Below, one piece after another: positions 1-24,304 of a DNA stretch of 64,000 nt. Both the position numbers and the translations under genes were made by a program. Below the pieces are notes generated by a model, which made no database searches, was not told the DNA's origin, and saw only the letters and a list, made by a program, of their open reading frames with translations. The stretch comes from Chloroflexota bacterium (GTDB taxonomy: Bacteria; Chloroflexota; Dehalococcoidia; JACPEP01): positions 21,048 through 85,047 of the forward strand of contig JACPEP010000008.1 in NCBI GenBank assembly GCA_016183425.1, given 5' to 3'. How positions within the stretch are numbered: the stretch's first letter is position 1; every line of letters starts with the position of its first letter.

Positions 1-133
1 GCTTAGGAGCCTCCCGGAACATGATGTCGCAGATAGCGCCCATTTCCAGATTCCAGTGGGCCCCCTGTATGCGCTTAAGCTCCCCCAGTTCCTCCACCTG
101 CGTCAGCCAGTCTCGTAAATCTCGATAGGCCAT
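1..133 (-). CDS. UbiD-family decarboxylase, N-terminal start only; gene continues off the window
   Basis: Reverse translation from 133 gives MAYRDLRDWLTQVEELGELKRIQGAHWNLEMGAICD, which matches the conserved UbiD N-terminus (LRDFL..LE..GELKRI). AGGAGG sits 7 nt upstream of the ATG. Confidence 0.55.
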   Translation of the reverse strand, partial: MAYRDLRDWLTQVEELGELKRIQGAHWNLEMGAICDIMFREAPK

Positions 134-145
134 TTTGTTCCTCCT

Positions 146-754
146 TCAACGCGCCTGCCATGTTTCTGCCACCCGCCGCCGCTCCTCCTCCGTGAGGCCG
201 TAGAGGTCGTAGACCAGGACGTCTATCTCCCTATCGGTGCGGGCGATCTCCCGCTCCAAGTCTTCTCTCTCACTCTGGGGCAGTGACTTATCCGCCTTCC
301 GGCGATGCAGTTCCAGCATCCCCTCCACCAGGGCCACCAGCCGGCCATGCATCGCCTTCTCTTCCGGGTTATCAAAGTCGATGCGGGGAAGTGGGAGTTT
401 ACCAACATAATAGTCGTCAAAATCCATCGTTCTGATAGCATTGGAGAAGACGAATTTGTAGGCATACCAGGACGCAAATCGGGAATTTAACAAGGCTACA
501 ATAAATTGGTAGGCAAATCTTTGGTCGGTTAAGACAGTGTTCTCCACCGTATCTAAAGTAAGGACGCCGTCTTTGTCTAAGGCAGACATCAGGATTATAT
601 GGTCCGATGGTTGTAGCACATGAGCTACTATGCGTTGGGTCAAAACTTTGGGCTGGCTCAACAAAGAGACCTTTTCGTTCGCTGTTCTCAGGACTTTTTC
701 GGGTAGCCTTTCAGATGATTTATACAGCGCATACCTCTGATTTATACAGCGCAT
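146..754 (-). pseudogene. Orphan 3' fragment of a type IIG RM gene: diverged TRD half plus a conserved C-terminus. It is an alternative or remnant allele of the 3680..6601 gene.
   Basis: The 202-aa ORF ends ...DFDNPEEKAMHGRLVALVEGMLELHRRKADKSLPQSEREDLEREIARTDREIDVLVYDLYGLTEEERRRV. This is near-identical to the last ~60 aa of the 973-aa RM enzyme, while the upstream ~130 aa are a diverged homolog of its TRD. Nuclease and methylase domains are absent. The start lies inside a 22-bp tandem duplication. Confidence 0.75.
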
Positions 755-759
755 ACCTC
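716..759. repeat. Perfect 22-bp tandem duplication (tgatttatacagcgcatacctc x2) at the 5' boundary of the orphan RM fragment
   Basis: Read directly from the sequence at 716-737 and 738-759. 22 is not a multiple of 3. Confidence 0.8.
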
Positions 760-1000
760 GTAATGTGATCTCCTCGATAGACTGGCGGGCCTAGCAGGGT
801 GTTGAAAAAGCCTGTCGGCGGCGCTACTTGAGACGGCAATCGTGGCTAACTGGACTCAACTTTGGCCCAAGAGGCCGAATTTCAACAGCCTGTTAGGCAC
901 TGACGACCGACCAGACCCCGAAAGCCCAACGAGGCTCGAAACCAAGACTGCCACCTGAAGACGGGGACGAAGACTCTGCCCAAATAAAGAGTCAGGTCTA

Positions 1001-1300
1001 TTAGACATGATAGGTAATGCCGGCACTTGCTTCAAAATTCGCAGAACGTCCACAACGTGCGACAAATGTGCCTGCTGGTAGGTCAACCTCACAACTTGTC
1101 TTACCTTGCGCAAAGATTGGCGGTGACTGGTGGGGTGGATAGTGAAAAAGAAGTCCACGAATTTCGAAGCTAGAAGCCCACTGTCCTAGAGTTATCTTTA
1201 CTGTTTGGAAGGTGGGTATACTGAATATTGCTTCATGGTCAACAATCTCAAGATGGTTTGATTCTCTCCACCACCCAAAACGAACTGTCTTTTCTGTCAT
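1001..1300 (-). CDS. Hypothetical protein (99 aa)
   Basis: ORF with AGGGAG about 8 nt upstream of the ATG (rc of 1301-1322) in a locally lower-GC stretch. No recognisable motif. Confidence 0.3.
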   Translation of the reverse strand: MTEKTVRFGWWRESNHLEIVDHEAIFSIPTFQTVKITLGQWASSFEIRGLLFHYPPHQSPPIFAQGKTSCEVDLPAGTFVARCGRSANFEASAGITYHV

Positions 1301-1623
1301 ATTTCATCATCTCCCTTTAATGTTTTTCGGTAATTCCAAAGCCCATTTACCCGCAATTCCCAATGCCTGACGTTCGGCTTCAGCCGCTGCGGCCCAGGGC
1401 GCGGACGATCTCGAGCATATGTCCTCCAAACGCAACGAGGGTCTAACTATTGATTAGGCAGCACCTTTGAAGTACAATGCTCCCCAAGGAGTATTATACC
1501 GCAACCGCCTCGATATCGCCCCCCCCTAGCCTTCTGGCACGCACACCATACGGTGACAATTCGGAGATGGGGCACTTCCGCTACTAATTATATGACTTTT
1601 GTCAATACATTTGTGACGAGGCC

Positions 1624-1691
1624 GTTTAATAATGGGGGTTACAAGGGGGCGAAGCCCCTTTGACGGGGGTCTGGGGGTACCCCCCAGATAC
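1624..1691. repeat. Left copy of a ~68-bp GC-rich double-hairpin element. It is an inverted repeat of 6655..6723.
   Basis: The reverse complement matches 6655-6723 at ~93%. It contains the palindromes ctggggg-tac-ccccag and caagggggcgaagcccccttg. Confidence 0.8.
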
Positions 1692-1772
1692 ATCATCGCC
1701 CCTTTCGCTGCCTCTATTCTATCCCTTCGCCATTCCATCCACCCGCCGCCGCTCTTCCTCGGTGGGGCGGCA
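1692..1772 (-). repeat. Copy D, the shortest copy of the RM-gene 3' terminus plus stop-linker-RBS
   Basis: The minus strand encodes ...EEERRRVDGMAKG* followed by agaatagaggcagcgaaagg. This is the same motif found at the real RM stop (3680). Confidence 0.7.
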
Positions 1773-1808
1773 AGGTTGCCGGTGGGCTAGAAAAGGCGAG
1801 GCCTTCTT

Positions 1809-2164
1809 TTATGGTAAAGGTCGAGATCGCACCCGACCTGGCGTCACCACGGTTATATGGCTGATCAACTCTTGCAAATCTCTGCCCTCCATGAAATGAG
1901 ATAGAAGATGGGTCAAATCAATGGCGGTGTAGGTGTCTGGCGCCCTAATAAGAACTAGACCTGGGGGCGGGGACGTGGTTCTCGGAAGGGGAAAATCGAG
2001 GTCTCTGTAATAAGTATCCGTCCTTCCTGGGCGGCCTTTTGCCATATGAGGACGTCTTCGCTGCCCCTAAGGGGAGGATCGGCCACTTCTATGAGGTCAT
2101 GTCCCTGGTCGCGGAGTACCTCGGCCATCTGGCGGGGGAGGTTCTCATCGAGGAGGAAGCGCAT
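1809..2164 (-). pseudogene. DUF5615 (PIN-like/Mut7-C RNase) toxin, frameshifted
   Basis: N-part MRFLLDENLPRQMAEVLRDQGHDLIEVADPPLRGSEDVLIWQKAAQEGRILIT (2164..~2020). The C-part is in another frame: ...YYRDLDFPLPRTTSPPPGLVLIRAPDTYTAIDLTHLLSHFMEG...ITVVTPGRVR (to 1809). Together they cover a complete DUF5615 domain. Confidence 0.6.
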
Positions 2165-2375
2165 ACAGCCGTTCTTCTGCTAGTGCCTCGGCGGCGTAGG
2201 CTAGGGCGGCCAGCACGTCTTCTTGGGCGAGCCGATATTCCCGGCAGACTTCTTCTACCGTCATTCCTCCCGCTAGAGAGCCGATGACGACCTGGACGGG
2301 CACTCGGGTTCCTTTGATGACCGGCTTGCCCCCCATTATCTCGGGGTTGATGGTGATTCGCTCTTGCCAATTCAT
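2145..2375 (-). CDS. DUF433-family protein, the antitoxin-like partner of DUF5615
   Basis: MNWQERITINPEIMGGKPVIKGTRVPVQVVIGSLAGGMTVEEVCREYRLAQEDVLAALAYAAEA is the DUF433 signature. AGGAGG lies upstream and the gene overlaps the DUF5615 start. Confidence 0.7.
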   Translation of the reverse strand: MNWQERITINPEIMGGKPVIKGTRVPVQVVIGSLAGGMTVEEVCREYRLAQEDVLAALAYAAEALAEERLYALPPR

Positions 2376-2387
2376 AGACAGCGCCTC

Positions 2388-2577
2388 CTTTGCTGCCTCT
2401 ATTCTACCCCTTTGCCATTCCCTCCACCAGCCGCCGCTCCTCATCGGTGAGGCCGTAGAGGTCATAGACCAGGGCGTCTATCTCCCTATCGGTGCGGGCG
2501 ACCTTCCGCTCCCGGTCTTCTTTCTCACTCTGGGGGAGGGACTTATCCGCCTTCCGCCGATGCAACTCCAGCATGGG
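2388..2577 (-). repeat. Copy C of the RM-gene 3' terminus (~190 bp) plus stop-linker-RBS, immediately upstream of the DUF433 cassette
   Basis: Encodes ...MLELHRRKADKSLPQSEKEDRERKVARTDREIDALVYDLYGLTDEERRLVEGMAKG*, then aatagaggcagcaaaggagg followed by the DUF433 ATG. Confidence 0.8.
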
Positions 2578-2601
2578 ACTACCAAAGCTACTGCGACAGC
2601 A

Positions 2602-2823
2602 TTACATTAGTTTGATAAACTCGTCCACCCCAAGACCAGCTTGTCTGATGATGGCGCGCAACGTCCCTCCGTCCAATTCTCTATGGTCAGGAACGACCAC
2701 CTGGGCAAAGGGGTCATCTCGCCGCAAGATCATGTGGCTACCCTCTTGCCGCTTCAGGTAGAATCTAGCCTTACCAAGGGCCTTGACGCACTGGCGTCCG
2801 GAAACCCTCGGCAACTTGCTCAT
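2602..2823 (-). CDS. hicA: HicA-family mRNA-interferase toxin
   Basis: MSKLPRVSGRQCVKALGKARFYLKRQEGSHMILRRDD...GTLRAIIRQAGLGVDEFIKL is a typical HicA (GSH motif). It overlaps hicB by 4 nt. Confidence 0.8.
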   Translation of the reverse strand: MSKLPRVSGRQCVKALGKARFYLKRQEGSHMILRRDDPFAQVVVPDHRELDGGTLRAIIRQAGLGVDEFIKLM

Positions 2824-3026
2824 ACTGCCACTACCAACGTTTCAAAGCGCTCCTCAGGAACAGGCAGGCCATCTTCCTCTAATGCGGCAACGTAGCCCCG
2901 AATCGCCTCTTTGATGTTGGCAATGGCTTCTTCTTTCGTTTTCCCCTGACTTATGCACCCCGGCAAGCTGGGGCATTCAGCCACCCAGTACCCATCTTCG
3001 CCAGGATAAATTATCACTTGTCGCAT
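2820..3026 (-). CDS. hicB: HicB-family antitoxin
   Basis: MRQVIIYPGEDGYWVAECPSLPGCISQGKTKEEAIANIKEAIRGYVAAL matches the HicB/UPF0150 fold signature. Confidence 0.8.
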   Translation of the reverse strand: MRQVIIYPGEDGYWVAECPSLPGCISQGKTKEEAIANIKEAIRGYVAALEEDGLPVPEERFETLVVAV

Positions 3027-3057
3027 CTTTCACCTCCATGTGGTTCCAGGGCGAACA

Positions 3058-3222
3058 ATAAGCCACTCATATTCTACCCCTTCGCCGCTCCCACCACCAC
3101 CCGCCGCTCCTCCTCCGTGAGGCCGTAGAGGTCGTAGACCAGGGCGTCTATCTCCCTATCGGTGCGGGCGATCTCCCGCTCCATGTCTTCCTTCTCGCTT
3201 TGGGGGAGGGAGTTATCTGCCC
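3058..3222 (-). repeat. Copy B of the RM-gene 3' terminus (variant C-terminus ...EEERRVVVGAAKG*)
   Basis: ~90% nucleotide identity to 3698-3860. It is followed by the HicB cassette. Confidence 0.8.
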
Positions 3223-3380
3223 CGTAGCAGGGCGATGAGTTCTTGACGAGACATCTCTATGTCTCGTCCAATCTTGAGCAAGATACCTGGCCCCAGGACC
3301 TCCCCGAGGTGCACTGGCACTACCGTGGCTCTGCCATCGGGGTGTTTCAGGAAAACATGGCTTCCTCGTTGGCGCATCAC
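3213..3380 (-). pseudogene. hicA: hicA remnant in frame with the upstream hicB, separated by an in-frame TAG
   Basis: Hand translation of the minus strand after the TAG at 3381-3383 gives VMRQRGSHVFLKHPDGRATVVPVHLGEVLGPGILLKIGRDIEMSRQELIALLRGR*. The HicA N-terminal helix (LPALTGAEVVRALEQAGF) is encoded at the end of the hicB ORF. Confidence 0.65.
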
Positions 3381-3653
3381 CTAGAAGCCGGCCTGCTCCA
3401 ATGCTCGGACGACCTCGGCTCCAGTAAGGGCAGGGAGTCGGCTCACACAGCCACCCGCTGTACACCCACCAGTTCCAGGGGCTCCCTCCTCTTCGCCCTG
3501 CACCTCCAGGCACAGCCGGATAGCTTCCTTGATGCGCTCAAGGAGCTCGTCCAGGGAGCGGGCCTGGGTATGGCAGCCGGGCAAAGAAGGGACACTGGCT
3601 ACCAGGTAGCCCTCCTCGTCCCGCTCGATAACCACCGTGAACTCTTGTGCCAT
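3381..3653 (-). CDS. hicB: HicB-like antitoxin whose reading frame runs into the HicA N-terminus
   Basis: MAQEFTVVIERDEEGYLVASVPSLPGCHTQARSLDELLERIKEAIRLCLEVQGEE, then a G/A-rich linker, then LPALTGAEVVRALEQAGF, then TAG. Confidence 0.65.
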   Translation of the reverse strand: MAQEFTVVIERDEEGYLVASVPSLPGCHTQARSLDELLERIKEAIRLCLEVQGEEEGAPGTGGCTAGGCVSRLPALTGAEVVRALEQAGF

Positions 3654-3679
3654 GGCTCGCCTCCTTCGCTGCCTCTATT

Positions 3680-6601
3680 CTACCCTTTTGCCATTCCCTC
3701 CACCAGCCGCCGCTCCTCTTCCGTGAGGCCGTAGAGGTCGTAGACCAGGGCGTCCATCTCCCTATCGGTGCGGGCGATCTCCCGCTGGATGTCTTCTTTC
3801 TCGCTCTGGGGCAGTGACTTGTCCCCCTTCCGCTTGTGCAGCTCCAGCATCCCCTCCACCAGGGCCACTAGGCGATCATGCATGGCCTTCTCTTCCGGGT
3901 TATCGAAGTCGATGCACCGGATGGGGAGCTGGCGGAGGAACATGGTCTTATATATGAAAAAGCCGCCCATCTTGGGAACTGCTATTCGCTTGTAATAGTA
4001 TTCAAGCAATTTGGAATTCAGCAATGCCAGCAGATAGAGCCGGTTGGCTCGTGTATCATTCTTCAAAACGATGCCACAAACTGTGTCAAGATAGAATTGC
4101 TCGCTTGTGGCTAAGGCAAACTTGGACTCCGACGCGATCTCTTGACAGACGATTTTGCTGACGGCCTGCTTATCATAACTGCGCTCGTTCCACAGCTCAA
4201 ACCAGGCTTTGCCTGAACTCTCAAAATAGTGCCGTCCCGCAAGCTTATCTCGCTTGGACTGCAAGTAGCCATAAACCTTCGGATACAGCGCACTGAGATC
4301 TGTTTCCTCTAACGCAACGCTCTTGCCATTAAGCAAGGAATAGGGGTAAATCATGAGATGGGTCAGTTCTTCAAGATACCAACGTTCAACGTGTCTGCCT
4401 TGAATAGCAGGGCGAAGCAATGCTTCCTCTAGCCCAAGTTGCGCGGCAACTTGACTCGGTACTACGAACACTGAGTTCGCCCCAGTTACAACCCCCTCAT
4501 TGATGCCCTCAACTAACTCTCCCAGGCGGTCAACGCGTCCCGCTTTCACTGCCTCAATAACTGACCGAGCGCTAGGTGATACAAAAGTCCATCCCCCGGC
4601 GGAAAGCGCCGACTGTTTAATTGAATAAGATTCCGCTTCAAGTCCCCCGGCAAAGTAAACGAAGAAATGGTTTTCCGGCCTCCGTTTCTGCACAATGAGT
4701 AAACACGTATAATTTATTGCACCTTCAAACACCTGGCTGTGCTGGAAGTCAACAATGGCTGTGATTGCTGTACGGTCTTTAAGTAACTCCCTAAGACGTG
4801 CACCATGTTGTCGCTTCATGAAATTGGTCGGGCAAATAAAGCCCAAATAGCCTTCTTCTTTAAGTAATTGAAGGCCACGCTCAATAAAAGGTAAATACAG
4901 GTCGAAACGACCAATTGCGCTGTAGTAATTATTGCGCAAATAAGGCTTGTCCTCTTCAAACCCTTGAAATCCCAGATACGGTGGGTTTCCCAACACCACG
5001 TCGAAGCCGCCCCCCTTCGACAGGCTCAGGGCAGAGCGGGCCATGATGTCGGGGAACCCCTCCTCCCAGGTGAAGGGGTGCTTATCACGCCAGGCGTCGC
5101 CAAAGTAGGGCTTTAGCTCCGCCTCGCCGCCGGAGATGAGGGAGTTGCCGCGGCGGATTGTATCGGCCAGGCTGGGCAAAAGCTCCTGCTTGGCCAGGGC
5201 GCGCAGGAGCAGGTTCAGCCGGGCGATCTGCACTGCCTGGTCGTCCAGGTCTACGCCAAAGATATTGCGGGTGAGGATGCTTATACGCTCGGCCCAGCCT
5301 AGCTCTGAGGGGGTCCTACCCTGCACCCGGGCATGATAGGCCAGAAGTTCGTCGTAGGCGCGGATGAGAAAGGAGCCGGAGCCGCAGGCCGGGTCGAGGA
5401 TCTTCATATTGAAGACTTCATCATAGGTGCGCTCCGCCAGGAAGCGCCCCACTGTCTGGCGGACGATATAGTCCACCACCCACCTGGGGGTGTAGTAGAT
5501 GCCCTGGGCCTTACGCTTTTGCTTCTTGGCGGCTAGCTCATAGCTCAGGTCTTCACCCTTGCCCAAAAGCCTTAACTGCCTTTCCTCTTGCCGAGCGCGC
5601 TCCTTCATCACTTCGGCTACATGGCCCAGGTATTGCTCATAGACGGCCCCCAGAACATCGGCGTCGATGGCGGCGAAGTCGTAACCGGCCAGGCTCCGCG
5701 GCCGTTCGTAGAGCCCCTTAAGGATGTCTCCCAGGATATCGCTTGTGACAAAGACGGAGTCCCAGGGATTGAGGACAGGGAAAAGGTCGCTGTCGTAGCG
5801 TTGGGCGAATTCGTGGAATATGCGTCGAACATCGTCGAGAAGTTCGCCCGTATAGCCGCCGTGGCTCCCTCGCTGGTGAAGGGCCGCCAGGAGAAGGTGC
5901 TCCTCGATGCCCCTGTCCTCGGCGGTGCGGATGAAGATGAGGCGATTCAACAACTGCTGGATGAGCTCGTCGATTTGAGGGAGGCTCAGCCCAGGGTGAT
6001 ACTTGGCAATTTCGTTAAACAGCGTCTCCCGCCACTGGCGCAACTGGTCAAAGAGGCTCTTTTCCACCGGAACCCTGGGGCGCAGCGCCCCATACTGCCT
6101 TGCCTCCCTTTCGAAATGGCCGCTCTGCCAAGAAGATTTGGAGAGAAGCCAGAGCTTCTCGAAGTTCTCCAGGTAGTCCTGGGAGTCCAGACTGATGAAC
6201 AGTCGTTCCTCCTCAGCGCTAAAGACGCGCAACGCCCTGAAGTTGGTTAGTACCGCCCAGTTGACTCCTTTATTGTAGGCGTAAGTGATGGCCTGTCTTT
6301 TGAATTCAAGGTCATCCAAGTTCCGATAGGGACGTTTGACCTCGACAATGAACTGGGTTACCCCGCCAATACGGAAAATATAATCGGCCCTTTCGCGGGC
6401 CACGTTGTCCTCTACTGAGACTTCGTCGGGGTTCCGCACATCCCAGCCCAGGGCCTCGAAGAGGGGATTGATGAAGGACTGACGCGTTTGCGCCTCGTTC
6501 ATGCGGCGCAGTTGGGCATCCGTCCGCCGGTGGAAGTCTGCCACCATTGTGTCGATCTGGCGCTGGGCCTCTTCCTTAGTCATGGAGAGAGCGTTTAGCA
6601 A
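3680..6601 (-). CDS. Type IIG (type IIL/MmeI- or Eco57I-like) restriction-modification enzyme. It fuses an N-terminal PD-ExK nuclease, an N6-adenine methyltransferase and a C-terminal TRD.
   Basis: 973 aa. The N-terminus has D...EVK (RADYIFRIGG..FIVEVKRP). MTase motif I is ILDPACGSGSFL and motif IV is LGNPPYLG. The C-terminal TRD has the LLALLNS motif. Confidence 0.85.
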   Translation of the reverse strand: MLNALSMTKEEAQRQIDTMVADFHRRTDAQLRRMNEAQTRQSFINPLFEALGWDVRNPDEVSVEDNVARERADYIFRIGGVTQFIVEVKRPYRNLDDLEFKRQAITYAYNKGVNWAVLTNFRALRVFSAEEERLFISLDSQDYLENFEKLWLLSKSSWQSGHFEREARQYGALRPRVPVEKSLFDQLRQWRETLFNEIAKYHPGLSLPQIDELIQQLLNRLIFIRTAEDRGIEEHLLLAALHQRGSHGGYTGELLDDVRRIFHEFAQRYDSDLFPVLNPWDSVFVTSDILGDILKGLYERPRSLAGYDFAAIDADVLGAVYEQYLGHVAEVMKERARQEERQLRLLGKGEDLSYELAAKKQKRKAQGIYYTPRWVVDYIVRQTVGRFLAERTYDEVFNMKILDPACGSGSFLIRAYDELLAYHARVQGRTPSELGWAERISILTRNIFGVDLDDQAVQIARLNLLLRALAKQELLPSLADTIRRGNSLISGGEAELKPYFGDAWRDKHPFTWEEGFPDIMARSALSLSKGGGFDVVLGNPPYLGFQGFEEDKPYLRNNYYSAIGRFDLYLPFIERGLQLLKEEGYLGFICPTNFMKRQHGARLRELLKDRTAITAIVDFQHSQVFEGAINYTCLLIVQKRRPENHFFVYFAGGLEAESYSIKQSALSAGGWTFVSPSARSVIEAVKAGRVDRLGELVEGINEGVVTGANSVFVVPSQVAAQLGLEEALLRPAIQGRHVERWYLEELTHLMIYPYSLLNGKSVALEETDLSALYPKVYGYLQSKRDKLAGRHYFESSGKAWFELWNERSYDKQAVSKIVCQEIASESKFALATSEQFYLDTVCGIVLKNDTRANRLYLLALLNSKLLEYYYKRIAVPKMGGFFIYKTMFLRQLPIRCIDFDNPEEKAMHDRLVALVEGMLELHKRKGDKSLPQSEKEDIQREIARTDREMDALVYDLYGLTEEERRLVEGMAKG

Positions 6602-6654
6602 CCTTTTTCGACCATCCCCCTGGCCCCCTTCCTGGCCAGGAAGGGGGTGGTAAT

Positions 6655-6723
6655 GTATCTGGGGGACACCCCCAGACCCCCGTCAAAGGGGGCTTCGCCC
6701 CCTTGCAACCCCCGTTATTAAAC
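6655..6723. repeat. Right copy of the ~68-bp double-hairpin element, 54 bp upstream of the RM start codon and 5 bp after the coxL stop
   Basis: gtatctgggggacacccccagacccccgtcaaagggggcttcgcccccttgcaacccccgttattaaac. It is an inverted repeat of 1624-1691. Confidence 0.8.
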
Positions 6724-6727
6724 AGTC

Positions 6728-8983
6728 TCATGGAGGAGCTTGCTGTTTCCCCTTCTCTTTCAGCGCCCTCAACAGTCGCTCCGGGGTGATGGGGAGGTCT
6801 TTTATCCGGATGCCGGTGGCATGGTAGATGGCGTTGGCCAGGGCGGGGGCGGTGGGGAGGCCCGCTGGCTCCCCCACCCCCTTGGCCCCGAAGGGGCCGT
6901 TGGGGTCTACCGATTCCACCAGGATGGGCCGTAAGGGAGGGACGTCCAAGGCCGTGGATAGCTTGTAGTCGGCGAAGTTGGGGTTCAGGGTCTGTCCCTC
7001 CACCCGCACCAGATTTTCCCTCAGGGTGTAGCCCAGGGCCATGGCGATGCCCCCCTCCAATTGTCCTTCGGCGTTCATGGGGTTTATGGCCCGCCCCAGG
7101 TCGTGGGCGGCCGCCACCTGGAGCACTGTCACCTCCCCCGTCTCCGGGTCTACAGCCACCTCTGCCGCCTGAGCACCGAAGGCGTAGGCGTCGATGCCCC
7201 GCTCCGCGGGGTGGTCGAACTGGCCCTTGCCCAGAATGGCCACCCCGCCCTTGCGGTCGGGGGTGCCGGATACCTGAGAGAAGGGTATGGCCTTATCCTG
7301 GCTCCCAGCGACGAATATCTGCCCGTCGCGGATCTCCAGGTCGTCGGGGGAGGCCTCCAGCTTTTGGGCGGCCAGGGCCAGGAGCTCCTTTTTGGCTTCG
7401 GCAGCCGCCGCCCGAACGGCGTTGCCGGCAGTGAAGGTGACCCGGTTGGCCCGGGAGCCCAGGTCCAGGGGGGTGGTGGCGGTGTCCATGGCGATGACGC
7501 GCACCTTATCCACAGGCACGCCCAGCTCCTCGGCGGCGATCTGGGCCAGGATGGTGCTGGAGCCCTGACCGATGTCCGGGTTGCCCGTGAGCACCGTTAC
7601 CGCATCTTCACTGATGTTGACATAAGCGCTGGAGAACTCCCCGGAGGCCACGCCGCTCACGTGGATGAAGCTGGCCAGCCCCACGCCCTGGCCTGGCGAA
7701 GAGCTTTTTCTCCTCTCCGGCCACCCGATGGCCTCTGCCGCCTGTTCCAGGCACTCCCTCTGGCCACAGGAGGTTATCTTGTTCCCCCAAGGGCTTCTGG
7801 TGTTGGGGAGGTTGGCGTTCTTGGCCCGTAGCTCCAGGGGGTCCATGCCCATTCTCTCTGCCAGCATGTCCAGGAGGGACTCCATGGCGAATATAATCTG
7901 AGTGCTGCCAAAGGCTCGGAAGCGTCCCCCCCAGGGGTTATTGGTGTAGACGGCGTATCCTTCGTACTGGATGTTGGGCACTCTATACAGGGAGCACATG
8001 ACCCGGCCCTCCACGTCCGGCAACAGTGGCCCCACGTCGCTGTAGGCGCCGTTATCGATGATGATGCGGGCCTGCCAGGCCAGCAGGGTGCCGTCTCTCC
8101 GGGCGCCCACCTTAACCCAGATAATGTGGGGGTGGCGGGAGCGGGTGGAGATGAACTCCTCCTCCCGGCTGAGGACCACCCGCACCGGGCGGTGGCTTTT
8201 GCGGGACAGAAAGGCGGCGATGGCCTCCTCGGTGATGCGGGACTTGCTGCCGAAGCCGCCACCCACGTGCACGTGGTGGAAGCGAATTTTGTGGAAAGGC
8301 ATCGGGAGCACCCGGGCCAGGTCCTGGCGGGCGTAGTAGGGGGCCTGGGTGGAGCTCCACAGGGTGAGGTCGCCGTTGAGCTCAAAATGGGCAAGGCAGC
8401 TATGGGGTTCCATACATGAGTGGGCCACCGGATGGGTGGTGAAGGTGTCCTCCACGATGTAGTCAGCTTCGGCAAAGGCTCGCTCCACGTCCCCGTAGTG
8501 TCGGCGGGAGTGGCCGATGATATTCCGCCCTCCGCCAGAGGCGGACACCAGGGGGGCGCCGGGCTGGGAGGCGGCTATGGGGTCGAAGATGGCGGGCAGG
8601 ATCTCATAGTCCACCTGGATAAGCTCCAGGGCCTCCCGAGCGGTGTCCTCGTCTACCGCCGCCACCGCCGCCACCTCGTCCCCGATGTAGCACACCTCGT
8701 CCACCGCCAGAGGGTATTTGTCCTCGGTGTAGGCTGGCCCCATGAAGGTGTATTTTATCTTTGGGGTATCCTGGGCGGTGACGATCGCCTTCACCCCCGG
8801 CAGGGCTTCGGCGAGGTGCGTATCAATGCGCAGAATGCGGGCGTGAGGGTGGGGGCTGCGCAGTATCTTGCCGTGGAGCATCCCTCGGAGCTTTACGTCG
8901 CCGGCATAGCGGGCCTCTCCCGTCACCAGCAGGGGCCCATCCAGGCGAGGAATTCTCTTGCCAACCACCGAGAACTGGGTCAT
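6728..8983 (-). CDS. Molybdopterin-binding large subunit of a xanthine dehydrogenase/CO-dehydrogenase (CoxL/aldehyde oxidase) family enzyme
   Basis: MTQFSVVGKRIPRLDGPLLVTGEARYAGDV... matches the Ald_Xan_dh_C/C2 architecture. The start is at 8983, with AGGGGG upstream. The ORF caller extended it to 9211. Confidence 0.75.
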   Translation of the reverse strand: MTQFSVVGKRIPRLDGPLLVTGEARYAGDVKLRGMLHGKILRSPHPHARILRIDTHLAEALPGVKAIVTAQDTPKIKYTFMGPAYTEDKYPLAVDEVCYIGDEVAAVAAVDEDTAREALELIQVDYEILPAIFDPIAASQPGAPLVSASGGGRNIIGHSRRHYGDVERAFAEADYIVEDTFTTHPVAHSCMEPHSCLAHFELNGDLTLWSSTQAPYYARQDLARVLPMPFHKIRFHHVHVGGGFGSKSRITEEAIAAFLSRKSHRPVRVVLSREEEFISTRSRHPHIIWVKVGARRDGTLLAWQARIIIDNGAYSDVGPLLPDVEGRVMCSLYRVPNIQYEGYAVYTNNPWGGRFRAFGSTQIIFAMESLLDMLAERMGMDPLELRAKNANLPNTRSPWGNKITSCGQRECLEQAAEAIGWPERRKSSSPGQGVGLASFIHVSGVASGEFSSAYVNISEDAVTVLTGNPDIGQGSSTILAQIAAEELGVPVDKVRVIAMDTATTPLDLGSRANRVTFTAGNAVRAAAAEAKKELLALAAQKLEASPDDLEIRDGQIFVAGSQDKAIPFSQVSGTPDRKGGVAILGKGQFDHPAERGIDAYAFGAQAAEVAVDPETGEVTVLQVAAAHDLGRAINPMNAEGQLEGGIAMALGYTLRENLVRVEGQTLNPNFADYKLSTALDVPPLRPILVESVDPNGPFGAKGVGEPAGLPTAPALANAIYHATGIRIKDLPITPERLLRALKEKGKQQAPP

Positions 8984-8996
8984 CGTTCCCCCCTTG

Positions 8997-10451
8997 CTAT
9001 ACGATGGTGGGGTGAAGGTTGAGGAATAGTCCAGAAAGCAGGGTTCGGGCCCTCTCCTCGCTGACGAAGTCAGTGAGCTTGATGCGCTCCAGGAGCTCCT
9101 GATCTGGATTGCCCAGCTCTGGGAAGGGACGGTCGGTGGGTTTGGTGCTGTCGATGATAAGCCCCCCCGTTCGCATATAGGAAACGGGGGCCGGATCCTG
9201 GCGGTTGGCATCCAGGTCGCCTATCTTCTGCACCTGATATGTGTTGGCATCCACCCGGGTGCCTAAGGAGAAGAGCACCTCATGGATGTCGAAGGGATTG
9301 ATGTCGGTGTCCACAATGATGACGTTCTTGACGAAATCCCCGGCTGCCAGGAGGGTAAGCAGGCCGACCCGGGTGGACTCGCCGGGGTGGTCGGGCTGGA
9401 ACTGCACTACCGCCACGAAGGGGGCGGGGACGTAGGCGGCTCTGACCCTGGGATAGGCCTGCTTCAGGGTGCGGGTCAGGGCCAGGGCCAGGCTGGTGGC
9501 ATGATACAGGTCGTGGCGGGCGATGTGGGCGTCGAAAACCGGCTCCGCGGCCATGGTGATGGCCGTGGGGCGGAAGATGGGCTCCAGGGTCTGGGGAGAG
9601 TAGTAGCGCATGTAGTCTGTCCAGGGCCCGTTAAGGCCCCGTTCCGTGCAATGAAGGTAGCCCTCTAAAAGTATCTCGGCATCGGCGGGGACGAGGAAGT
9701 CCTCCCCCCAGGTTTCGGAGGGCGTAAGGCGCAGGGGTTCCCCCATGAGGCTGGCGGCGTAGTCATACTCATCCACGTCGTAGCCCACCCGCACCGACGA
9801 GGCCAGCATGAAGGTGGGGTAGTGACCCAGCACCCAGACACAAGGCATCTCCTCGTGGCCGGCGTCCCGGTAGCCCTGGAGGTAGCTCCACAGGTGGCGG
9901 TACTGGAGGCGGGCGGCGGCGCTCTGGGGGCCATGGAGGAGGAGACGGTGCCAGGAGAGGTTGTAGCGGCCGCTCTTGATCTCTCGGCCGATGGCCACGC
10001 CGCAGAACCAACCGGGGCGGGCATCCTTGGCGTCCTTGCGGTAGGCGGGGAGGTCCCTGAAGTCCATGTCGGAGCCGGTGATGACGGTGTGCTTCACCGG
10101 AGCCTCTTCCTTTTTCACCACCACCGTTTTCTGGGGCACGGTGGAGTGCTCGTGAAGGGTATTGATGAGGCCCTCCGCTGTCCACCGCTCTGGTGGCAGG
10201 CCACAAGCCACCGCCAGCTTGGAGAAGGTGCCATCGGCCTGGGTCTGGAGGAGGCCGGGCCACCTTTTGCCGTTGAGGGTGACTACGTTCTCGAAGACAG
10301 CCATGGGCCATTTGGACTGTCTCTCAAGGTGGTAAAGAAGAGCGTGGCACTCGGCCTCATGGGGCTTCAGTGGCCCTTTGGTGACCCGGACAATTTCCTC
10401 GGGGTGATGCTTCTCCAAAGTGGCGATGAAGGACTTGATGTTATGTGCCAT
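8997..10451 (-). CDS. UbiD-family (prFMN-dependent) decarboxylase
   Basis: 484 aa with UbiD-family similarity throughout. Confidence 0.7.
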   Translation of the reverse strand: MAHNIKSFIATLEKHHPEEIVRVTKGPLKPHEAECHALLYHLERQSKWPMAVFENVVTLNGKRWPGLLQTQADGTFSKLAVACGLPPERWTAEGLINTLHEHSTVPQKTVVVKKEEAPVKHTVITGSDMDFRDLPAYRKDAKDARPGWFCGVAIGREIKSGRYNLSWHRLLLHGPQSAAARLQYRHLWSYLQGYRDAGHEEMPCVWVLGHYPTFMLASSVRVGYDVDEYDYAASLMGEPLRLTPSETWGEDFLVPADAEILLEGYLHCTERGLNGPWTDYMRYYSPQTLEPIFRPTAITMAAEPVFDAHIARHDLYHATSLALALTRTLKQAYPRVRAAYVPAPFVAVVQFQPDHPGESTRVGLLTLLAAGDFVKNVIIVDTDINPFDIHEVLFSLGTRVDANTYQVQKIGDLDANRQDPAPVSYMRTGGLIIDSTKPTDRPFPELGNPDQELLERIKLTDFVSEERARTLLSGLFLNLHPTIV

Positions 10452-10463
10452 ATCTCTTCCTTA

Positions 10464-11690
10464 CTAGCTCCGGGTTTTCAGTACCCGTTGCACTATTTCC
10501 CGAAACTCACCTTCGTCCAGGAGTCCTTTCTTGCGATGGGAGGCCTCTTTGACTTGGGCCAGGATGTCCCTGGCCTCCTCTTCCGTGGCGTTGAGGCCCA
10601 TTTTGTCCAGCCACATGGTAATGGAGTCGATGCCACTGCTTTTGCCCAGCACGGTCTCTGCCGCCCGATGGCCCACCAGCTCCCAGCGGAAGGGGAAGAC
10701 CTCCGTGGCGTGGTCATAGCCACAGTTCTTGAACCAGGTGGTGATGATGCCCGATTCTATCTGAAAGAGGCGGTCCCCCACGATGGGTTTGTTGGAGGGA
10801 AGCTGAAGGCCGGAGAGCCGGCGCACTGTCTGGGAGAGGGAGGTGAGCTTCTCGTAGTTGAGGCCCACATCTACCCCGTACATAGTGAGGAGGGCCATGA
10901 CCGTCTCCTCCAGGGGGGCGTTGCCCGCTCGCTCCCCCAAGCCTGATACGGTGACGTGGGCCACCTCCGCCCCCGCCGCCAGCCCGGCCAGGGTATTGGC
11001 CACCCCCAGGCCGAAGTCGCCGTGGAAGTGGGTCTCCAAGGGCACCTTCACCCGTTCCTTAGTCTTGTGCACAAAGTAGGCGGCGGCGTGGGGAGAGAGG
11101 ACGCCGAAGGTGTCCACTAAGGCCAGAGCATCCATGTGTCCCTCTCTGGCTACCCGTTCGATGAGGTTCAGGTACCAGTTCATCTCGGCCCGGGTAGCGT
11201 CGATGGGAAAGAAGACGGTGTAAAGCCCCTGCTCTCTGGCGTAGGCGGTGGCCTGGATGGAGAGGTCCAGGGCCTTTTCCAGGGGCCAGCGGTAGGCGTA
11301 CTCCAGGATATGCTCCGAGCAGGGTATCTCCATGACGATGCCTTTGACGCCACAATCCACGGCTCTCTTTACGTCATCCACCATGCATCGGGAGAAGACG
11401 AAGATCTCCGGCCCCAGGTTGCGCCTTACGATCTCTTTTACCGCCGCCTCGTCTTCCACAGAAACGGCGGGCATCCCGGCCTCGATGCGGTGAACGCCCG
11501 CCTCCGCCAGCATCTCGGCGATGCGGACCTTGTCCTCTTTGGTGAAGGCTATCCCGGCCTGCTGCTCCCCGTCCCTAAGGGTGATGTCGTGGATTTTTAT
11601 TCGAGGCGAGAAGGTGAGGCCAGCCGTCACCTCCGGCTGGTAGTTCCAGGGGCTGACGAACCAGTTCTCGGTCTTCCAGGGTTCAGTCAA
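10464..11690 (-). CDS. DRE-TIM metallolyase family protein (homocitrate/citramalate/isopropylmalate-synthase-like or HMG-CoA-lyase-like)
   Basis: HDITLRDGEQQAGIAFTKEDKVRIAEMLAEAGVHRIEAG is the pyruvate-carboxyltransferase (HMGL-like) signature. Confidence 0.65.
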   Translation of the reverse strand: MTEPWKTENWFVSPWNYQPEVTAGLTFSPRIKIHDITLRDGEQQAGIAFTKEDKVRIAEMLAEAGVHRIEAGMPAVSVEDEAAVKEIVRRNLGPEIFVFSRCMVDDVKRAVDCGVKGIVMEIPCSEHILEYAYRWPLEKALDLSIQATAYAREQGLYTVFFPIDATRAEMNWYLNLIERVAREGHMDALALVDTFGVLSPHAAAYFVHKTKERVKVPLETHFHGDFGLGVANTLAGLAAGAEVAHVTVSGLGERAGNAPLEETVMALLTMYGVDVGLNYEKLTSLSQTVRRLSGLQLPSNKPIVGDRLFQIESGIITTWFKNCGYDHATEVFPFRWELVGHRAAETVLGKSSGIDSITMWLDKMGLNATEEEARDILAQVKEASHRKKGLLDEGEFREIVQRVLKTRS

Positions 11691-11759
11691 CGGGCACCTC
11701 TTTTTCTATTCAAGATTTTCCAAAAGTAATCTGTATATCGAGGGCTTTGGCCCTCCCAT

Positions 11760-11900
11760 GATCTGGCGGGTCTTTGCCCTCACCCCCTCTGTCCCCCTCT
11801 CCCCGCCAAAGGCGGGGAGAGGGGGACGAATTTAAGAATCAGGGGGTGTACCCCCTGAAACCCCTGCCAGAGGGGCTGCGCCCCTCTGGACACCCCGCGT
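11760..11900. repeat. Intergenic cluster of three perfect GC-rich hairpins
   Basis: ccctctccccgcc-aaa-ggcggggagaggg, caggggg-tgta-ccccctg, ccagagggg-ctgcg-cccctctgg. Confidence 0.7.
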
Positions 11901-11905
11901 TTTCA

Positions 11906-12799
11906 TCAATAATTTTCTGTTGCCCTAGCCACCGCCTGGGCTATCTGAAGGGTCTTCTTTGCCCTCTCGGCCACGGCCACATCCACCATCCTCCCCTCCA
12001 CGGACACCGCCGCCGAGCCCTGGGCTACGGCGGCCTGAAAGGCCGCCACTACCTTCTGGGCGTTGGCGATCTCCTCCGGTGAGGGGGAGAACATTCTGTT
12101 CACTATTTCCAACTGGTCGGGATGAATGAGACATTTGCCCACAAAGCCCAGATGTCGTGCCAGATGGGCCTCCTGCTCCAGCCCCTCCCGGTCTCTGAAA
12201 TCGGAGTAGACGGTGTCCACAGCGGCGACGCCCGCCGCTCGGGCGGCGACGACGACTTGAGAGCGGGCGAAGAAGAGCTCCCTGCCTCTTCTGGTGCGGG
12301 TTATCCCCATGTCCAGAGTAAAATCCTCGGCTCCAAAAAGGAGGCCCACCACCCGCGGGCTGGCCGAGGCCACTTCCAGGGCGTTCATCACCCCCTTCGC
12401 CGTCTCAATAATGGGCAGTAGGGTGACGCTGCCCACTTCCAGCCCGTGCTTTCTCTCGGCATCAGCCAGGAAGCCCTCGGCGAGAAGGATGTGACCCGCC
12501 GACTCTACCTTGGGGATACAGATCCCGTCCAAACCTGGTCTTACCACGGCCTCGATGTCCAGGGGAGCCAGCTCTCCCGTCACCACGTTGGTGCGAACGT
12601 AGACGCGGCGCCAGAGCGTCCTCACACGAGGGAGGGCGTCTCGCACCATGGTACGGGCGGTTTCCTTCTCTGCCAGGGGCACCGAGTCCTCCAGGTCCAG
12701 GATGACCCCGTCCACATCCAGGGTGGCCGCCTTGTCTATACGCCGGAGGGAGTTGCCGGGGACAAAGAGCAAGCTTCGGAACAGGGCAACTTCTGTCAT
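11906..12799 (-). CDS. HpcH/HpaI aldolase / CitE-family acyl-CoA lyase (malyl-CoA/citramalyl-CoA/citryl-CoA lyase-like)
   Basis: 297 aa. FVPGNS...DLEDSV, the E/D metal ligands and the overall CitE pattern. Confidence 0.7.
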   Translation of the reverse strand: MTEVALFRSLLFVPGNSLRRIDKAATLDVDGVILDLEDSVPLAEKETARTMVRDALPRVRTLWRRVYVRTNVVTGELAPLDIEAVVRPGLDGICIPKVESAGHILLAEGFLADAERKHGLEVGSVTLLPIIETAKGVMNALEVASASPRVVGLLFGAEDFTLDMGITRTRRGRELFFARSQVVVAARAAGVAAVDTVYSDFRDREGLEQEAHLARHLGFVGKCLIHPDQLEIVNRMFSPSPEEIANAQKVVAAFQAAVAQGSAAVSVEGRMVDVAVAERAKKTLQIAQAVARATENY

Positions 12800-12820
12800 C
12801 TCACCCCTCCCCGCTAAGCG

Positions 12821-23711: not shown

Positions 23712-23770
23712 ACCTTCCGTATTCTAACGCTTTGTCCTTCTCTATGTCAACGGAAATGTACCGAGGATGA

Positions 23771-23860
23771 TTAATAACGGGGGTTTCAAGGGGCCCCTTG
23801 ACGGTCCGCCGTAGGCGGATGGGGACGTCCCCTCACTCGCCTTTGGCGGGGACTAATTTC
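23771..23860. repeat. Third, partial copy of the ttaataayggggg...caagggg...ccccttgacgg element, followed by further GC hairpins
   Basis: ttaataacgggggtttcaaggggccccttgacgg matches the first ~35 bp of 1624-1691 in the same orientation. It is followed by ccgcc-gtag-gcgg and ggggacgtcccc. Confidence 0.55.
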
Positions 23861-23968
23861 TAGACAGGGCGGGTGAAAGACAACACCCTCTGTATGAGAA
23901 ACCACGTTGCCCGAGAAATTATTTCAGGACAAACAGCGCAGCGCCTGGCCTGGGCACCCCAAAGGTGT

Positions 23969-24304
23969 TCAGGAGGTGATCAATTCCTTGAGAAGAGTGC
24001 GGTGGCAGTGAGACTCGTCACGGCAGCCACAGAGGAGGGTTACCGTCTCTCCCTCGGCCCTCCTGGCTACGGCGGCTATTAACTCTGTCTTGCCCTTCAT
24101 CTCCTCCCGGTAGCGGGGAGCATACTGTTCCCAGTTTATGCGTTGCCGCCGCCAATCCTCCAACAGAGCAAGACTGGGGCCCAGTTCTTTTTCCCACTCG
24201 TCCACCGCCGCCCTGGGTATACCTCGGGGCCATCGGCGCATGATCAGCAGCCGAAAGCCGTCCTGGGGCTCCCGAGGCTGATAGATAGACTTGGTCTTCA
24301 CCAT
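23969..24304 (-). CDS. DUF488-family protein
   Basis: YQPREPQDGFRLLIMRRWPRGIPRAAVDEW...TVTLLCGCRDESHCHRTLLKELI is the DUF488 pattern. Confidence 0.6.
   Translation of the reverse strand: MVKTKSIYQPREPQDGFRLLIMRRWPRGIPRAAVDEWEKELGPSLALLEDWRRQRINWEQYAPRYREEMKGKTELIAAVARRAEGETVTLLCGCRDESHCHRTLLKELITS

Follow-up and report, generated by a model that had tools for sequence, protein, structure and literature searches.

The window, a 64-kb stretch of Chloroflexota DNA, holds a type IIG restriction-modification (RM) gene which, together with TA cassettes, is bracketed by two inverted copies of a short G+C-rich repeat. The right copy lies between a coxL-like gene and the RM gene, and two further copies bring the density of the repeat family to four in 64 kb. 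Coordinates and the evidence for each feature are collected in Table 1.

Table 1. Repeat copies and associated features in the window
Feature	Coordinates	Strand	Evidence
Left copy, truncated family member	1618..1693	+	alignment, nhmmer, covariance model
Short copy of the RM 3'-end repeat ('repeat copy D'), adjoining the left copy	1694..1776	-	
Type IIG restriction-modification gene	3680..6583	-	Pfam scan (Eco57I, N6_Mtase, TaqI_C, HSDR_N); ORF list
Downstream direct repeat TCCAT flanking the right copy	6582..6586	-	read from sequence
Right copy, full-length family member (143 nt)	6587..6729	-	covariance model, alignment, folding
Upstream direct repeat TCCAT flanking the right copy	6730..6734	-	read from sequence
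Fourth family member	11766..11905	-	nhmmer E 5.6e-9; covariance model 64.1 bits, E 3.9e-15, over 11766-11898
Degenerate family member	23763..23890	+	23-nt motif and matching ends

Repeat copies in the window

An earlier note on this DNA had described a 68-bp inverted pair with 5 mismatches or indels, and alignment of 1624-1691 with the reverse complement of 6655-6723 gave the same picture, with 64 of 69 columns identical, 4 mismatches and 1 indel. The repeat extends further, by GAG.C. on the outside and CAT on the inside, to 1618-1693 and 6652-6729, and a weaker alignment reaches 1710/6637 (82 of 94 columns). The copies are 4.9 kb apart and share a longest exact run of 24 nt, and their outer 5' termini (GAGGCCGTTTAATAA on the left, GAGACTGTTTAATAA on the right), which face outward, agree at 13 of 15 positions. 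The inverted pair is confirmed as real and stands far above chance, with 3 matches of the 23-nt motif TTAATAAYGGGGGTTNCAAGGGG in the window versus 0 in 100 shuffles, and 2 matches of the 30-nt second half of the repeat versus 0 expected. Each copy had been said to contain two perfect hairpins, which holds for hairpin 2 (CTGGGGG-NNN-CCCCCAG) in both copies but not for hairpin 1, which has one bulged base or G.T wobble per copy.

The left copy consists of the 5' terminus (1618-1632), hairpin 1 (1642-1662), hairpin 2 (1671-1687) and ATACAT, and so represents the 5' half of the element only, the 3' half being absent. It was found with an E-value of 1.5e-17 by nhmmer and with 52.9 bits (E 4e-12) by the covariance model, where the match is convincing only at model positions 16 to ~72. 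As the earlier note had it, the left copy abuts repeat copy D, a partial copy of the RM 3'-end repeat, and the assignment of 1694-1710 is ambiguous, this stretch being shared between the extension of the left copy and the RM 3'-end repeat. The inner half of the left copy would have been lost in rearrangements of the array of RM 3' ends and TA cassettes.

The right copy begins with its 5' terminus at 6729-6715, followed by a G-run, hairpin 1 (6705-6684), a second G-run, hairpin 2 (6675-6659) and hairpin 3 (6647-6624), the three being G5/C5 hairpins, and ends with CCAGGGGGATGGTCGAAAAAG and the 3' terminus GTTGCTAAACGCTCTC (6602-6587). The boundary formerly placed at 6655 therefore falls inside the element, which continues to 6587, 3 nt from the likely RM start ATG at 6583; the distance of 54 bp given to an ATG measures instead to a TTG at 6601. 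A covariance model (R1) matched the right copy over positions 1-141 of 141 (132.5 bits, E 1e-33), the copy was alignable end to end with 48 elements of other genomes, and both of its strands fold into a closing stem with three hairpins, although its own termini agree at only ~11 of 15 positions.

The direct repeats flanking the right copy can be read in extended form as CCTCCATGA upstream (6736-6728), which overlaps the first two bases of the element and includes the coxL-like stop TGA, and as TCTCCATGA downstream (6588-6580), which includes the RM start ATG at 6583-6581. By a rough estimate, 8 of 9 positions would agree by chance, as they do for C(C/T)TCCATGA, with a probability of 1e-4 per register, or ~3e-3 over 25 registers. 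Removal of the element and one repeat copy would leave ...GCTCCTCCATGACTAAGG..., where ATGA combines the RM start with the overlapping coxL-like stop. The right copy is a complete element that would have inserted at the junction of these two signals, both of which the target duplication would have kept. Within a coxL-RM message it would form a long terminal stem with three hairpins, and it may be speculated that this structure could influence processing or coupling of the two genes.

The fourth copy, overlooked in the earlier note, belongs by type to the main subfamily; its hairpin 3 is longer (CCCCCTCTCCCC...GGGGAGAGGGGG) and its 3' terminus degenerate. It begins immediately after a CTAG containing the TAG stop of the ORF at 11906-12799, and the stretch 11899-11905 is probably part of it, judging from this CTAG and the position of the terminus. 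What had been noted as a third, partial copy at 23771-23804 does carry an exact match of the 23-nt motif and a hairpin, and it belongs to a longer degenerate member that has GAGGATGATTAATAA as its terminus and ...CAACACCCTC as its 3' end, along with a G-run, a short hairpin 1 (CAAGGGGCCCCTTG) and diverged hairpins. This copy is antisense, between the minus-strand genes 23007-23711 and 23969-24304; since neither nhmmer (E 1.6) nor the covariance model (E 1.1) scored it well, its membership was assigned from the motif and the matching ends.

Family size and insertion sites

The complete element is ~141-155 nt long and has no coding capacity; its terminal inverted repeats, of 15-19 nt, enclose three short G5/C5 hairpins with G-runs between them. 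Across the family alignment, pairing is seen in 78-80% of cells for the terminal inverted repeats, which also covary, and in 96-99% for the three hairpins. The internal motif, which is independent of the termini, was found in at least 118 stretches, with ~30 Chloroflexota MAG assemblies among the matches listed; apart from one chance hit, all assemblies among these matches are from Chloroflexota. A core profile identified 209 copies in 840 kb of motif-bearing Chloroflexota DNA, 98 of them within the 318 kb sampled from a single MAG. The terminus type of the window has four further copies on metagenome contigs, and the 3' half of the family is mosaic. Copies at gene ends by the dozen, named in the earlier note as the mark of a generic element, thus occur in related genomes, while the source genome is known from the 4 copies in the 64-kb window, its copy number being judged from these and from analogy with related MAGs.

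The copies are mostly intergenic: at most 62 of 185 lie inside called ORFs, mostly short ORFs or near ORF ends, as judged with a crude ORF caller that called ~87% of the DNA coding. In the main subfamily the target duplication is 4 bp with the consensus YTAR, and the flanking tetranucleotides match as direct duplications, not as inverted repeats, at 43 of 69 copies (29.7 expected, p ~4e-4). In 31 of the 69, an ORF of 80 codons or more uses the TAR of the duplication as its stop codon. In a G+C-rich genome YTAR falls mainly at TAG/TAA stop codons and intragenic insertions are selected against, which would account for the pile-up of copies at gene ends. For the terminus type of the window (GAGACYGTTTAATAA) the length of the duplication is less certain, at 5 or 8-9 bp for the right copy and 9 bp in L001, with no clear length in L023 and L083. 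Mobility is documented by a nested insertion (L063:1386-1526), which has an exact CTAG duplication and whose target stands empty and uninterrupted at nine paralogous sites.

A transposase gene with matching termini was not found in the family-bearing DNA examined. Elements of this kind are non-autonomous, and we infer that the transposase acts in trans: encoded elsewhere, it would bind both termini, excise or copy the element and insert it with a short target duplication.

Interpretation of the inverted pair

The right copy is very probably a complete member, and the left copy a fragment, of a dispersed family of ~140-155-bp non-coding MITEs, their facing each other across the RM/TA block being incidental. 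Three other readings were weighed against this one.

The element or its hairpin core might be kept as a functional structured nucleic acid, which could hold alongside a transposon origin and which we regard as unlikely. It could serve as an RNA structure in a 3'-UTR or between cistrons, with a part in transcript stability, processing or insulation, or as a protein-binding DNA structure, and the copy between the coxL-like and RM genes would then regulate RM expression. Support for the structure comes from the pairing of 91% of alignment cells, versus 67% at most once the partners are slid out of register, and from 15 pairs that have changed on both sides. Conservation of the hairpins (0.93 and 0.84) exceeds that of the termini (0.71-0.79), although the conservation of the core is in part an ascertainment effect of the search pattern, and copies from different genomes are nearly as similar as copies within a genome. 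Between tandem genes the sense orientation is favoured by 44 to 19 (p = 0.002), a statistic that depends on crude ORF calls, and of the four copies in the window, two run antisense to the genes next to them. Taken together, hairpin conservation, between-genome likeness and sense bias hint at some constraint beyond transposition. Of 50 copies, 42 keep the G.T wobble of hairpin 1. With this one inherited wobble set aside, however, G.U does not clearly outnumber A.C (62 versus 54 overall), and folding is about as good on one strand as on the other (z -2.35 and -3.69). A search of Rfam gave no matching family, and the elements contain no promoter or intrinsic-terminator consensus, which also counts against the terminator or promoter-region role that had been proposed. 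There is precedent in the Correia and ERIC elements, which affect the processing of host transcripts by RNase III or RNase E (PMC10969869).

It is very improbable that a transposase recognising the two outward 5' termini moved, or could move, the RM/TA block (1618-6729) as cargo. The earlier note had proposed MITE-like terminal inverted repeats mobilising this block; the MITE-like character stands, but each copy is itself a MITE or a fragment of one. The matching, outward-facing termini favour mobilisation, as do a cargo of RM gene and TA pairs, which is typical of mobile units, and a GC content of the block lower than that of the neighbouring metabolic genes. However, the low-GC region does not stop at the left copy but extends beyond it to the window edge, and no target duplication flanks the 5.1-kb block (TGAC versus ATGG, the 9-mers differing too). 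Moreover, the right copy is complete and has both an inner terminus and a flanking repeat of its own; the flanking repeat allows the pre-insertion coxL-RM junction to be reconstructed. The left copy has no inner half. In relatives, inverted pairs of similar spacing bracket housekeeping genes: among 90 pairs of neighbouring copies the median spacing is 1.65 kb and 31 are inverted, and pairs of copies enclose dapF, ftsZ, sodN and a histidine kinase. The inverted pair therefore looks incidental and does not appear to mark the ends of a mobile RM/TA block; the copies face each other across it because the family is dense, and this arrangement is not evidence of a device moving or inverting the block.

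A recombination or inversion site, at which homologous or site-specific recombination would flip the RM/TA segment as a phase-variation switch, is likewise hardly credible. In its favour, the copies are inverted, 4.9 kb apart and 93% identical over 69 columns, with a 24-nt exact run, and in Neisseria inversion is reported for segments enclosed by Correia elements (review, PMC10969869). Against it, runs of identity are short, none of ten scanned ORFs of the block and left flank has a recombinase or invertase domain, the copies are each subfamily-consistent and not chimeric, and one assembled orientation only is seen. Inversion would also cut the RM gene off from what lies upstream of it, and no other promoter is obvious.

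Comparison with known systems

The MITE family is apparently undescribed, and of an ordinary kind. Among the readings of the earlier note, a REP-type element came closest, in that the family is a dispersed gene-end repeat; because terminal inverted repeats and target duplications are present, it is MITE-type rather than REP-type. Like the RAYT-mobilised REP/BIME elements, it is scattered outside genes, at their ends, as G+C-rich stem-loops whose modules occur in mosaic combinations. REPs, however, are single palindromes of 20-40 bp that carry a GTAG or CGTC tag and lack both terminal inverted repeats and target duplications (PMC3733652), whereas the Chloroflexota element has both features, is 140-155 nt long and carries no GTAG/CGTC tag.

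With the IS5 family and its derived MITEs the main subfamily shares the 4-bp YTAR duplication, which is the IS5 motif (PMC10359306), and terminal inverted repeats of 15-19 nt. It differs in that no transposase gene or full-length IS with the termini of the family was found in the DNA examined, and the subfamily of the window has other termini and possibly a longer duplication.

ERIC elements are highly conserved across species, and cross-species conservation is likewise high in the Chloroflexota family, in both cases without clear reason. ERIC/IRU elements of enterobacteria are similarly imperfect palindromes of ~127-150 bp in transcribed intergenic regions, often at the 3' ends of genes (PMC10969869). 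The Chloroflexota family has far more copies per genome, as illustrated by the MAG with 98 core copies, shows clear YTAR duplications and a nested insertion demonstrating mobility, and has a mosaic 3' half.

The Correia/NEMIS elements, MITEs of Neisseria, resemble the family in being ~100-200-bp non-coding sequences with terminal inverted repeats and short target duplications, present in at least a hundred copies that are mostly intergenic beside genes, with termini that form a long stem when transcribed and with pairs that may enclose genes (PMC10969869). There is no sequence similarity between the two, and the Chloroflexota family is G+C-rich, with its three G5/C5 hairpins, and has no sigma-70-type promoter match. 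The host phylum differs as well, and whereas the target duplication of Correia elements is TA, that of the family in Chloroflexota is the 4-bp YTAR.

The inverted repeat and its copies in the window

The inverted-repeat pair reported in the earlier note was confirmed, with 64 of 69 columns identical between 1624-1691 and the reverse complement of 6655-6723 and a longest exact run of 24 nt between the left and right copies. The repeat is longer than the 68 bp originally described, extending outward to GAG.C. and inward to CAT, and so occupies 1618-1693 and 6652-6729. A repeat search of the window returned the same pair as inverted arms together with an additional link of 6699-6729 to 23763-23793, and the 23-nt 5' motif was found three times and the 30-nt 3' part twice in the window, each with zero occurrences in shuffled sequence. 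The description of the internal hairpins as perfect holds for hairpin 2 but not for hairpin 1, which contains a bulge or wobble in both copies. The partial third copy noted at 23771 was recovered as part of a degenerate copy that lies beyond the reach of the profiles (E about 1) but in which the 23-nt motif is still exact and the 3' end still resembles the family. The genes around the repeat pair are all encoded on the minus strand, where the order is coxL-like gene, right copy, restriction-modification (RM) gene, toxin-antitoxin (TA) cassettes, left copy, DUF3800-IX RNA and TaqI_C fragment, the left copy being in the orientation opposite to that of the right copy. The TA cassettes are two HicAB pairs and one pair of DUF433 and truncated DUF5615, with an RM 3'-end copy after each.

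Positions of the element copies, genes and associated features in the window
Feature	Position	Strand	Basis or remark
Left copy	1618-1693	+	
Right copy	6587-6729	-	143 nt
Fourth copy	11766-11898	-	R1 64.1 bits; core HMM nhmmer E 5.6e-9
Degenerate copy	23763-23890	+	
coxL-like molybdopterin oxidoreductase	6728-8983	-	ORF list and domain scan
Type IIG RM gene	3680-6583	-	Eco57I, N6_Mtase, TaqI_C domains
Mechanical extension of the RM ORF	6584-6601	-	starts at TTG (6601) within the element
RM 3'-end repeat	124-397		direct orientation
RM 3'-end repeat	1694-1776		direct orientation
RM 3'-end repeat	2379-2652		direct orientation
RM 3'-end repeat	3049-3221		direct orientation
RM 3'-end repeat	3655-3928		direct orientation
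TaqI_C fragment ORF	146-754	-	202 aa
DUF5615/PIN_10 toxin ORF	1955-2164	-	truncated, 54 of 110 profile positions
DUF433 partner	2145-2465		looks complete
DUF3800-IX RNA	1514-1573	-	Rfam, 48.8 bits (gathering score 36.8); directly outside the left copy
ORF ending at the fourth copy	11906-12799		

Anatomy of the element

The 5' motif had no match in 185,579 reference genomes or in viral contigs and matched four metagenome contigs, whose sequences follow the right copy in register over about 150 nt; the right copy is therefore a complete element, and the left copy is no more than the 5' half of one. On the metagenome contigs the order is 5' terminus GAGACYGTTTAATAA, G-run, hairpin 1 (with a variable loop), G-run, hairpin 2 and hairpin 3, the stem of the last showing a compensatory change (CCCCCTTCC/GGAAGGGGG versus CCCCCTCTCC/GGAGAGGGGG). 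Hairpin 3 is followed by CCAGGGGGATGG... and then by a 3' end that is an inverted copy of the 5' end and that reads ATATTAAACAGTCTC in L001, a locus from another genome. The family consensus of about 141 nt begins, after a flanking cTAG, with CAGGCTGCTGAAAAA-GGGGAGTSC-hairpin 1-CGGGGGT-hairpin 2 and continues as linker-hairpin 3-CCAGGGGGATGGTCGAAAGGG-TTTTTCAGCACCCTG, after which CTAg follows.

Full-length copies mostly measure 132-148 nt, and the right copy could be aligned to the family consensus from end to end (132.5 bits, E 1e-33, model positions 1-141 of 141). The covariance model of the family (R1) was built from 50 copies. Its alignment of the 3' part of the left copy required a 61-nt insertion in hairpin 3 and was put down to overfitting, since the bases concerned are part of the RM 3'-end repeat. 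The fourth copy begins directly after a CTAG that holds the stop codon of the neighbouring ORF. Two terminus types, that of the main subfamily and that of the right copy, are present in one organism, both in this window and in L001. A small ORF within the element was considered and rejected, since the ATG of the left copy and of L001 is AAC in other copies; with the start codon of some copies missing from others, the element contains no conserved ORF.

Evidence for transposition

The main subfamily is bounded by the terminal inverted repeats CAGGCTGCTGAAAAA...TTTTTCAGCACCCTG, and in the 69 copies in which both termini are present 78-80% of the terminal cells pair, with changes on both sides (covariation) in 10 of the 15 pairs. 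The termini of the right copy, GAGACTGTTTAATAA and GTTGCTAAACGCTCTC, match at about 11 of 15 positions and those of L001 at 14 of 15. Target-site duplication was borne out for the main subfamily: the flanking tetranucleotides match directly in 43 of the 69 copies as against 29.7 expected by shuffling (p about 4e-4), and inverted matches show no excess in the same copies. The consensus of the tetranucleotides outside these termini is YTAR, the duplication motif of IS5 (PMC10359306).

Insertion is also documented by an empty-site comparison. At L063:1386-1526 (-), in another locus of the family, a type-A (main-subfamily) element splits a copy of another repeat, namely the long 3' module belonging to a different variant of the family, and is flanked by an exact CTAG duplication. 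When the flanks were joined with one CTAG, the sequence became colinear with nine uninterrupted paralogues that represent empty sites (e.g. L106:5728-5820), the junction reading GGCAAGC-CTAG-CTCATGG and the paralogue GGCAAGC-CGAA-CTCAGGG.

The right copy is flanked on each side by TCCAT or, with the register shifted by two bases, by C(C/T)TCCATGA with 8 of 9 positions matching; the chance probability of roughly 3e-3 is suggestive of a target duplication. Removal of the right copy and one repeat leaves ...GCTCCTCCATGACTAAGG..., in which the stop of the coxL-like gene overlaps the RM start in the sequence ATGA, and this suggests, without proving, that the coxL-like and RM genes were already neighbours at the time of the insertion. 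After a 100%-identical protein of an NCBI 'Chloroflexi bacterium' MAG, the best remaining homologue of the coxL-like protein is 54% identical. The mechanical coxL-like ORF includes 76 codons upstream of the start that is supported by the identical NCBI protein. The RM gene more plausibly starts at the ATG of position 6583, immediately beyond the element, than at the TTG used by the mechanical ORF.

No autonomous insertion sequence or transposase with the same termini was found when 5' and 3' termini were paired at 0.6-4 kb in 904 kb of DNA. The ORFs between the paired termini encode DapF, FtsZ, Ni-SOD, a histidine kinase and a hydrolase, and the unpaired termini belong to degenerate MITEs.

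Abundance and genomic position of the family

A scan with an internal motif, which covers the hairpin 2 region only, found at least 118 stretches; among the matches listed, all except a single chance match in an actinomycete come from about 30 Chloroflexota/Dehalococcoidia MAG assemblies, and 41 are supplied by MAG B4_bin.23 (JACVQK01). The core HMM identified 209 copies in 840 kb of loci, of which 98 lie within 318 kb sampled from MAG B4_bin.23, and the window itself has 4 copies in 64 kb. Judged by crude ORF calls, the copies avoid coding sequence, the few cases inside an ORF being short ORFs or ORF ends, and between tandem genes they stand in sense orientation 44 times and in antisense orientation 19 times. 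In 31 of 69 copies the TAR of the duplication doubles as the stop codon of an ORF that has 80 codons or more, which would explain the association of the copies with gene ends.

The 3' half of the element is a mosaic. A G4-like variant, found in L010, L015, L019, L026, L056, L058, L060, L072, L074, L078, L089, L098 and L122, keeps the conserved 5' core and has hairpin 3 replaced by the G-quadruplex-like tract GGGYGGGYGGGTGGG; it still carries the main-type 3' terminus in L089 and L053. In L071 (5470-5983, with the element at 6078-6148) a family member with GAGATTGTTTA termini adjoins a cluster of six tRNA genes and has GTTTTT on both sides. Copies were also observed at contig ends or no more than a few tens of bases away from them (e.g. 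L022, L025, L089, L102 and L116), which suggests that the repeat breaks MAG assemblies.

Structure and conservation

The right copy folds on both strands into a terminal stem around three hairpins, with -68.6 kcal/mol (z -2.35) for one strand and -65.6 kcal/mol (z -3.69) for the other. Across 50 copies, with a hand-mapped structure based on a single reference copy, 91% of cells pair as against at most 67% when the partners are slid, and both sides have changed in 15 pairs. An RNAalifold structure calculated on the MAFFT core alignment was discarded as misaligned, the C-run of hairpin 1 having been paired with the next G-run. Conservation is 0.93 in hairpin 3, 0.84 in the first G-run and the arm of hairpin 1, and 0.71-0.79 at the termini, the conservation of the core being in part an ascertainment effect. 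Internal identity is 0.825 between genomes and 0.877 within a genome. Counts of G.U versus A.C gave no clear strand-specific (RNA-level) signal beyond one inherited wobble.

That the hairpins are conserved above the termini poses a small question about what constrains such elements. One answer would be that the hairpin core (G-run, hairpin 1, G-run, hairpin 2 and usually hairpin 3) is a selected structured module, either a 3'-UTR or intercistronic RNA or a hairpin/G-quadruplex switch, spread by IS5-type MITEs; selection would keep it across Chloroflexota, and the miniature transposons spreading it would have interchangeable termini and 3' modules. Selection of the core is allowed by the higher conservation of the hairpins than of the termini, by a between-species identity close to that within a genome, by the sense bias and by the G4-like GGGYGGGYGGGTGGG module of some variants, and we consider it improbable. 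Were it true, the copy between the coxL-like and RM genes would modulate RM expression. By analogy with Correia and ERIC elements (PMC10969869), it is also a matter of speculation that a transcribed copy might be a substrate of RNase III or RNase E and alter the coupling of the coxL-like and RM genes.

Relation of the element to the RM/TA block

The earlier note had considered that the repeats might be MITE-like ends mobilising the RM/TA block or a site of recombination or inversion. Neither proposal was upheld. Mobilisation is disfavoured by the lack of a flanking duplication of 1618-6729 and by the low G+C beyond the left copy; a composite transposon bounded by both copies was likewise rejected, as the outer flanks (...TTTGTGAC and ATGGAGGAG...) contain no 4-9-bp direct repeat. 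The G+C content is 0.48-0.59 from 1 to about 6500 and 0.61-0.66 beyond (6700-14000), shifting at about 6600, and therefore the compositional break coincides with the right copy while the low-G+C stretch runs past the left copy; as low G+C persists to the window's left edge, the foreign-looking island is bigger than the segment enclosed by the repeats. Recombination or inversion finds no counterpart in the ORFs of the block that were scanned, which contain no recombinase-type domain. Relatives yielded 90 pairs of adjacent copies, spaced at a median of 1.65 kb, some of which enclose ftsZ, dapF, sodN and a histidine kinase gene; 31 of the 90 are inverted, 13 of these with the same outward-facing arrangement as in the window. 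At a density of four copies in 64 kb, two inverted copies 5 kb from each other call for no special explanation, and the pair around the RM/TA block consists of two copies of a generic mobile repeat that happen to lie on either side of it. The block is neither a transposon with 68-bp ends nor an invertible segment, so that an account of its origin should turn instead to the repeated RM 3' ends.

The RM 3'-end repeat, present in five copies, comprises the last 17-80 codons, the stop codon and about 25 nt with an AAGGAGG box, and its copies separate the two HicAB pairs and the DUF433/DUF5615 pair. It looks as though the TA cassettes were inserted serially at the 3' end of the RM gene, with every cassette either carrying this end along or restoring it; the block is structured by this repeat and not by the 68-bp repeat. 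The TaqI_C fragment ORF holds only a TaqI_C-type specificity domain and the conserved RM C-terminus and differs from the intact RM in the sequence upstream of the repeat that both share; it could be left over from the RM target-recognition domain or be a silent alternative to it. On the minus strand, a TATAAT-like box precedes the DUF3800-IX RNA by about 15 nt. The RNA's usual DUF3800 gene seems absent or decayed because the ORFs downstream (856-1300) have no Pfam match, and inspection by eye of the three-frame translation of 755-1515 revealed nothing recognisable as a decayed DUF3800 gene.

Significance

The analysis documents a very abundant MITE family of Chloroflexota (Dehalococcoidia-type MAGs). 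Chloroflexi go unmentioned in a 2024 review on the MITEs of prokaryotes (PMC10969869) and no description of the family was found in the literature searched, so that it is apparently an undescribed member of a well-known kind, absent from Rfam. As its copies sit on stop codons and between genes, the family can confuse annotation, an example being the RM ORF artificially extended into the element; it also fragments MAGs, several copies lying at contig ends, and its copies are possible markers for strain typing.

Comparison with known element classes

REP sequences and BIMEs are built from a palindromic unit of 20-40 bp with a GTAG or CGTC tag at one end (PMC3733652). The present element, at 140-155 nt, is too long, has three hairpins with the heads CAGAGGGG, CTGGGGG and CCCCCTTCC, and lacks the GTAG/CGTC tag. 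The suggestion that it is a generic REP element was correct as to a generic repeat dispersed near gene ends in relatives and incorrect as to the class, which is MITE. An integron attC site, considered on account of the adjacent cassette-like TA array, follows the consensus 5'-RYYYAAC...GTTRRRY-3', varies in sequence, comes once behind every cassette and occurs in clustered arrays. This reading was dismissed: the element reads 5'-GTTTAAT...GCTAAAC-3', with the order reversed and both cores off consensus, its sequence is highly conserved and dispersed beside ftsZ, dapF and sodN, and it is RM 3'-end repeats, and not the element, that stand between the TA cassettes.

Rfam 15 gave no match to the element at the gathering score in the window and six element-carrying loci and, at a permissive threshold, only chance-level hits in 6500-6800 (no more than 15 bits, where the gathering scores are 35-88). 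Intrinsic terminators (a G+C-rich hairpin followed by a T-run) and sigma-70 promoters (-35/-10 hexamers at 16-18-nt spacing) had no predicted site inside the three copies within 1-12500, where the counts of predicted sites equal those of shuffled sequence.

MITEs are defined as elements of 70-300 bp with terminal repeats of 15-30 bp and no coding capacity (PMC3733652), and in size, terminal repeats and absence of coding capacity the element is a MITE, which works in the same way as the Correia, ERIC and IS5-derived MITEs.
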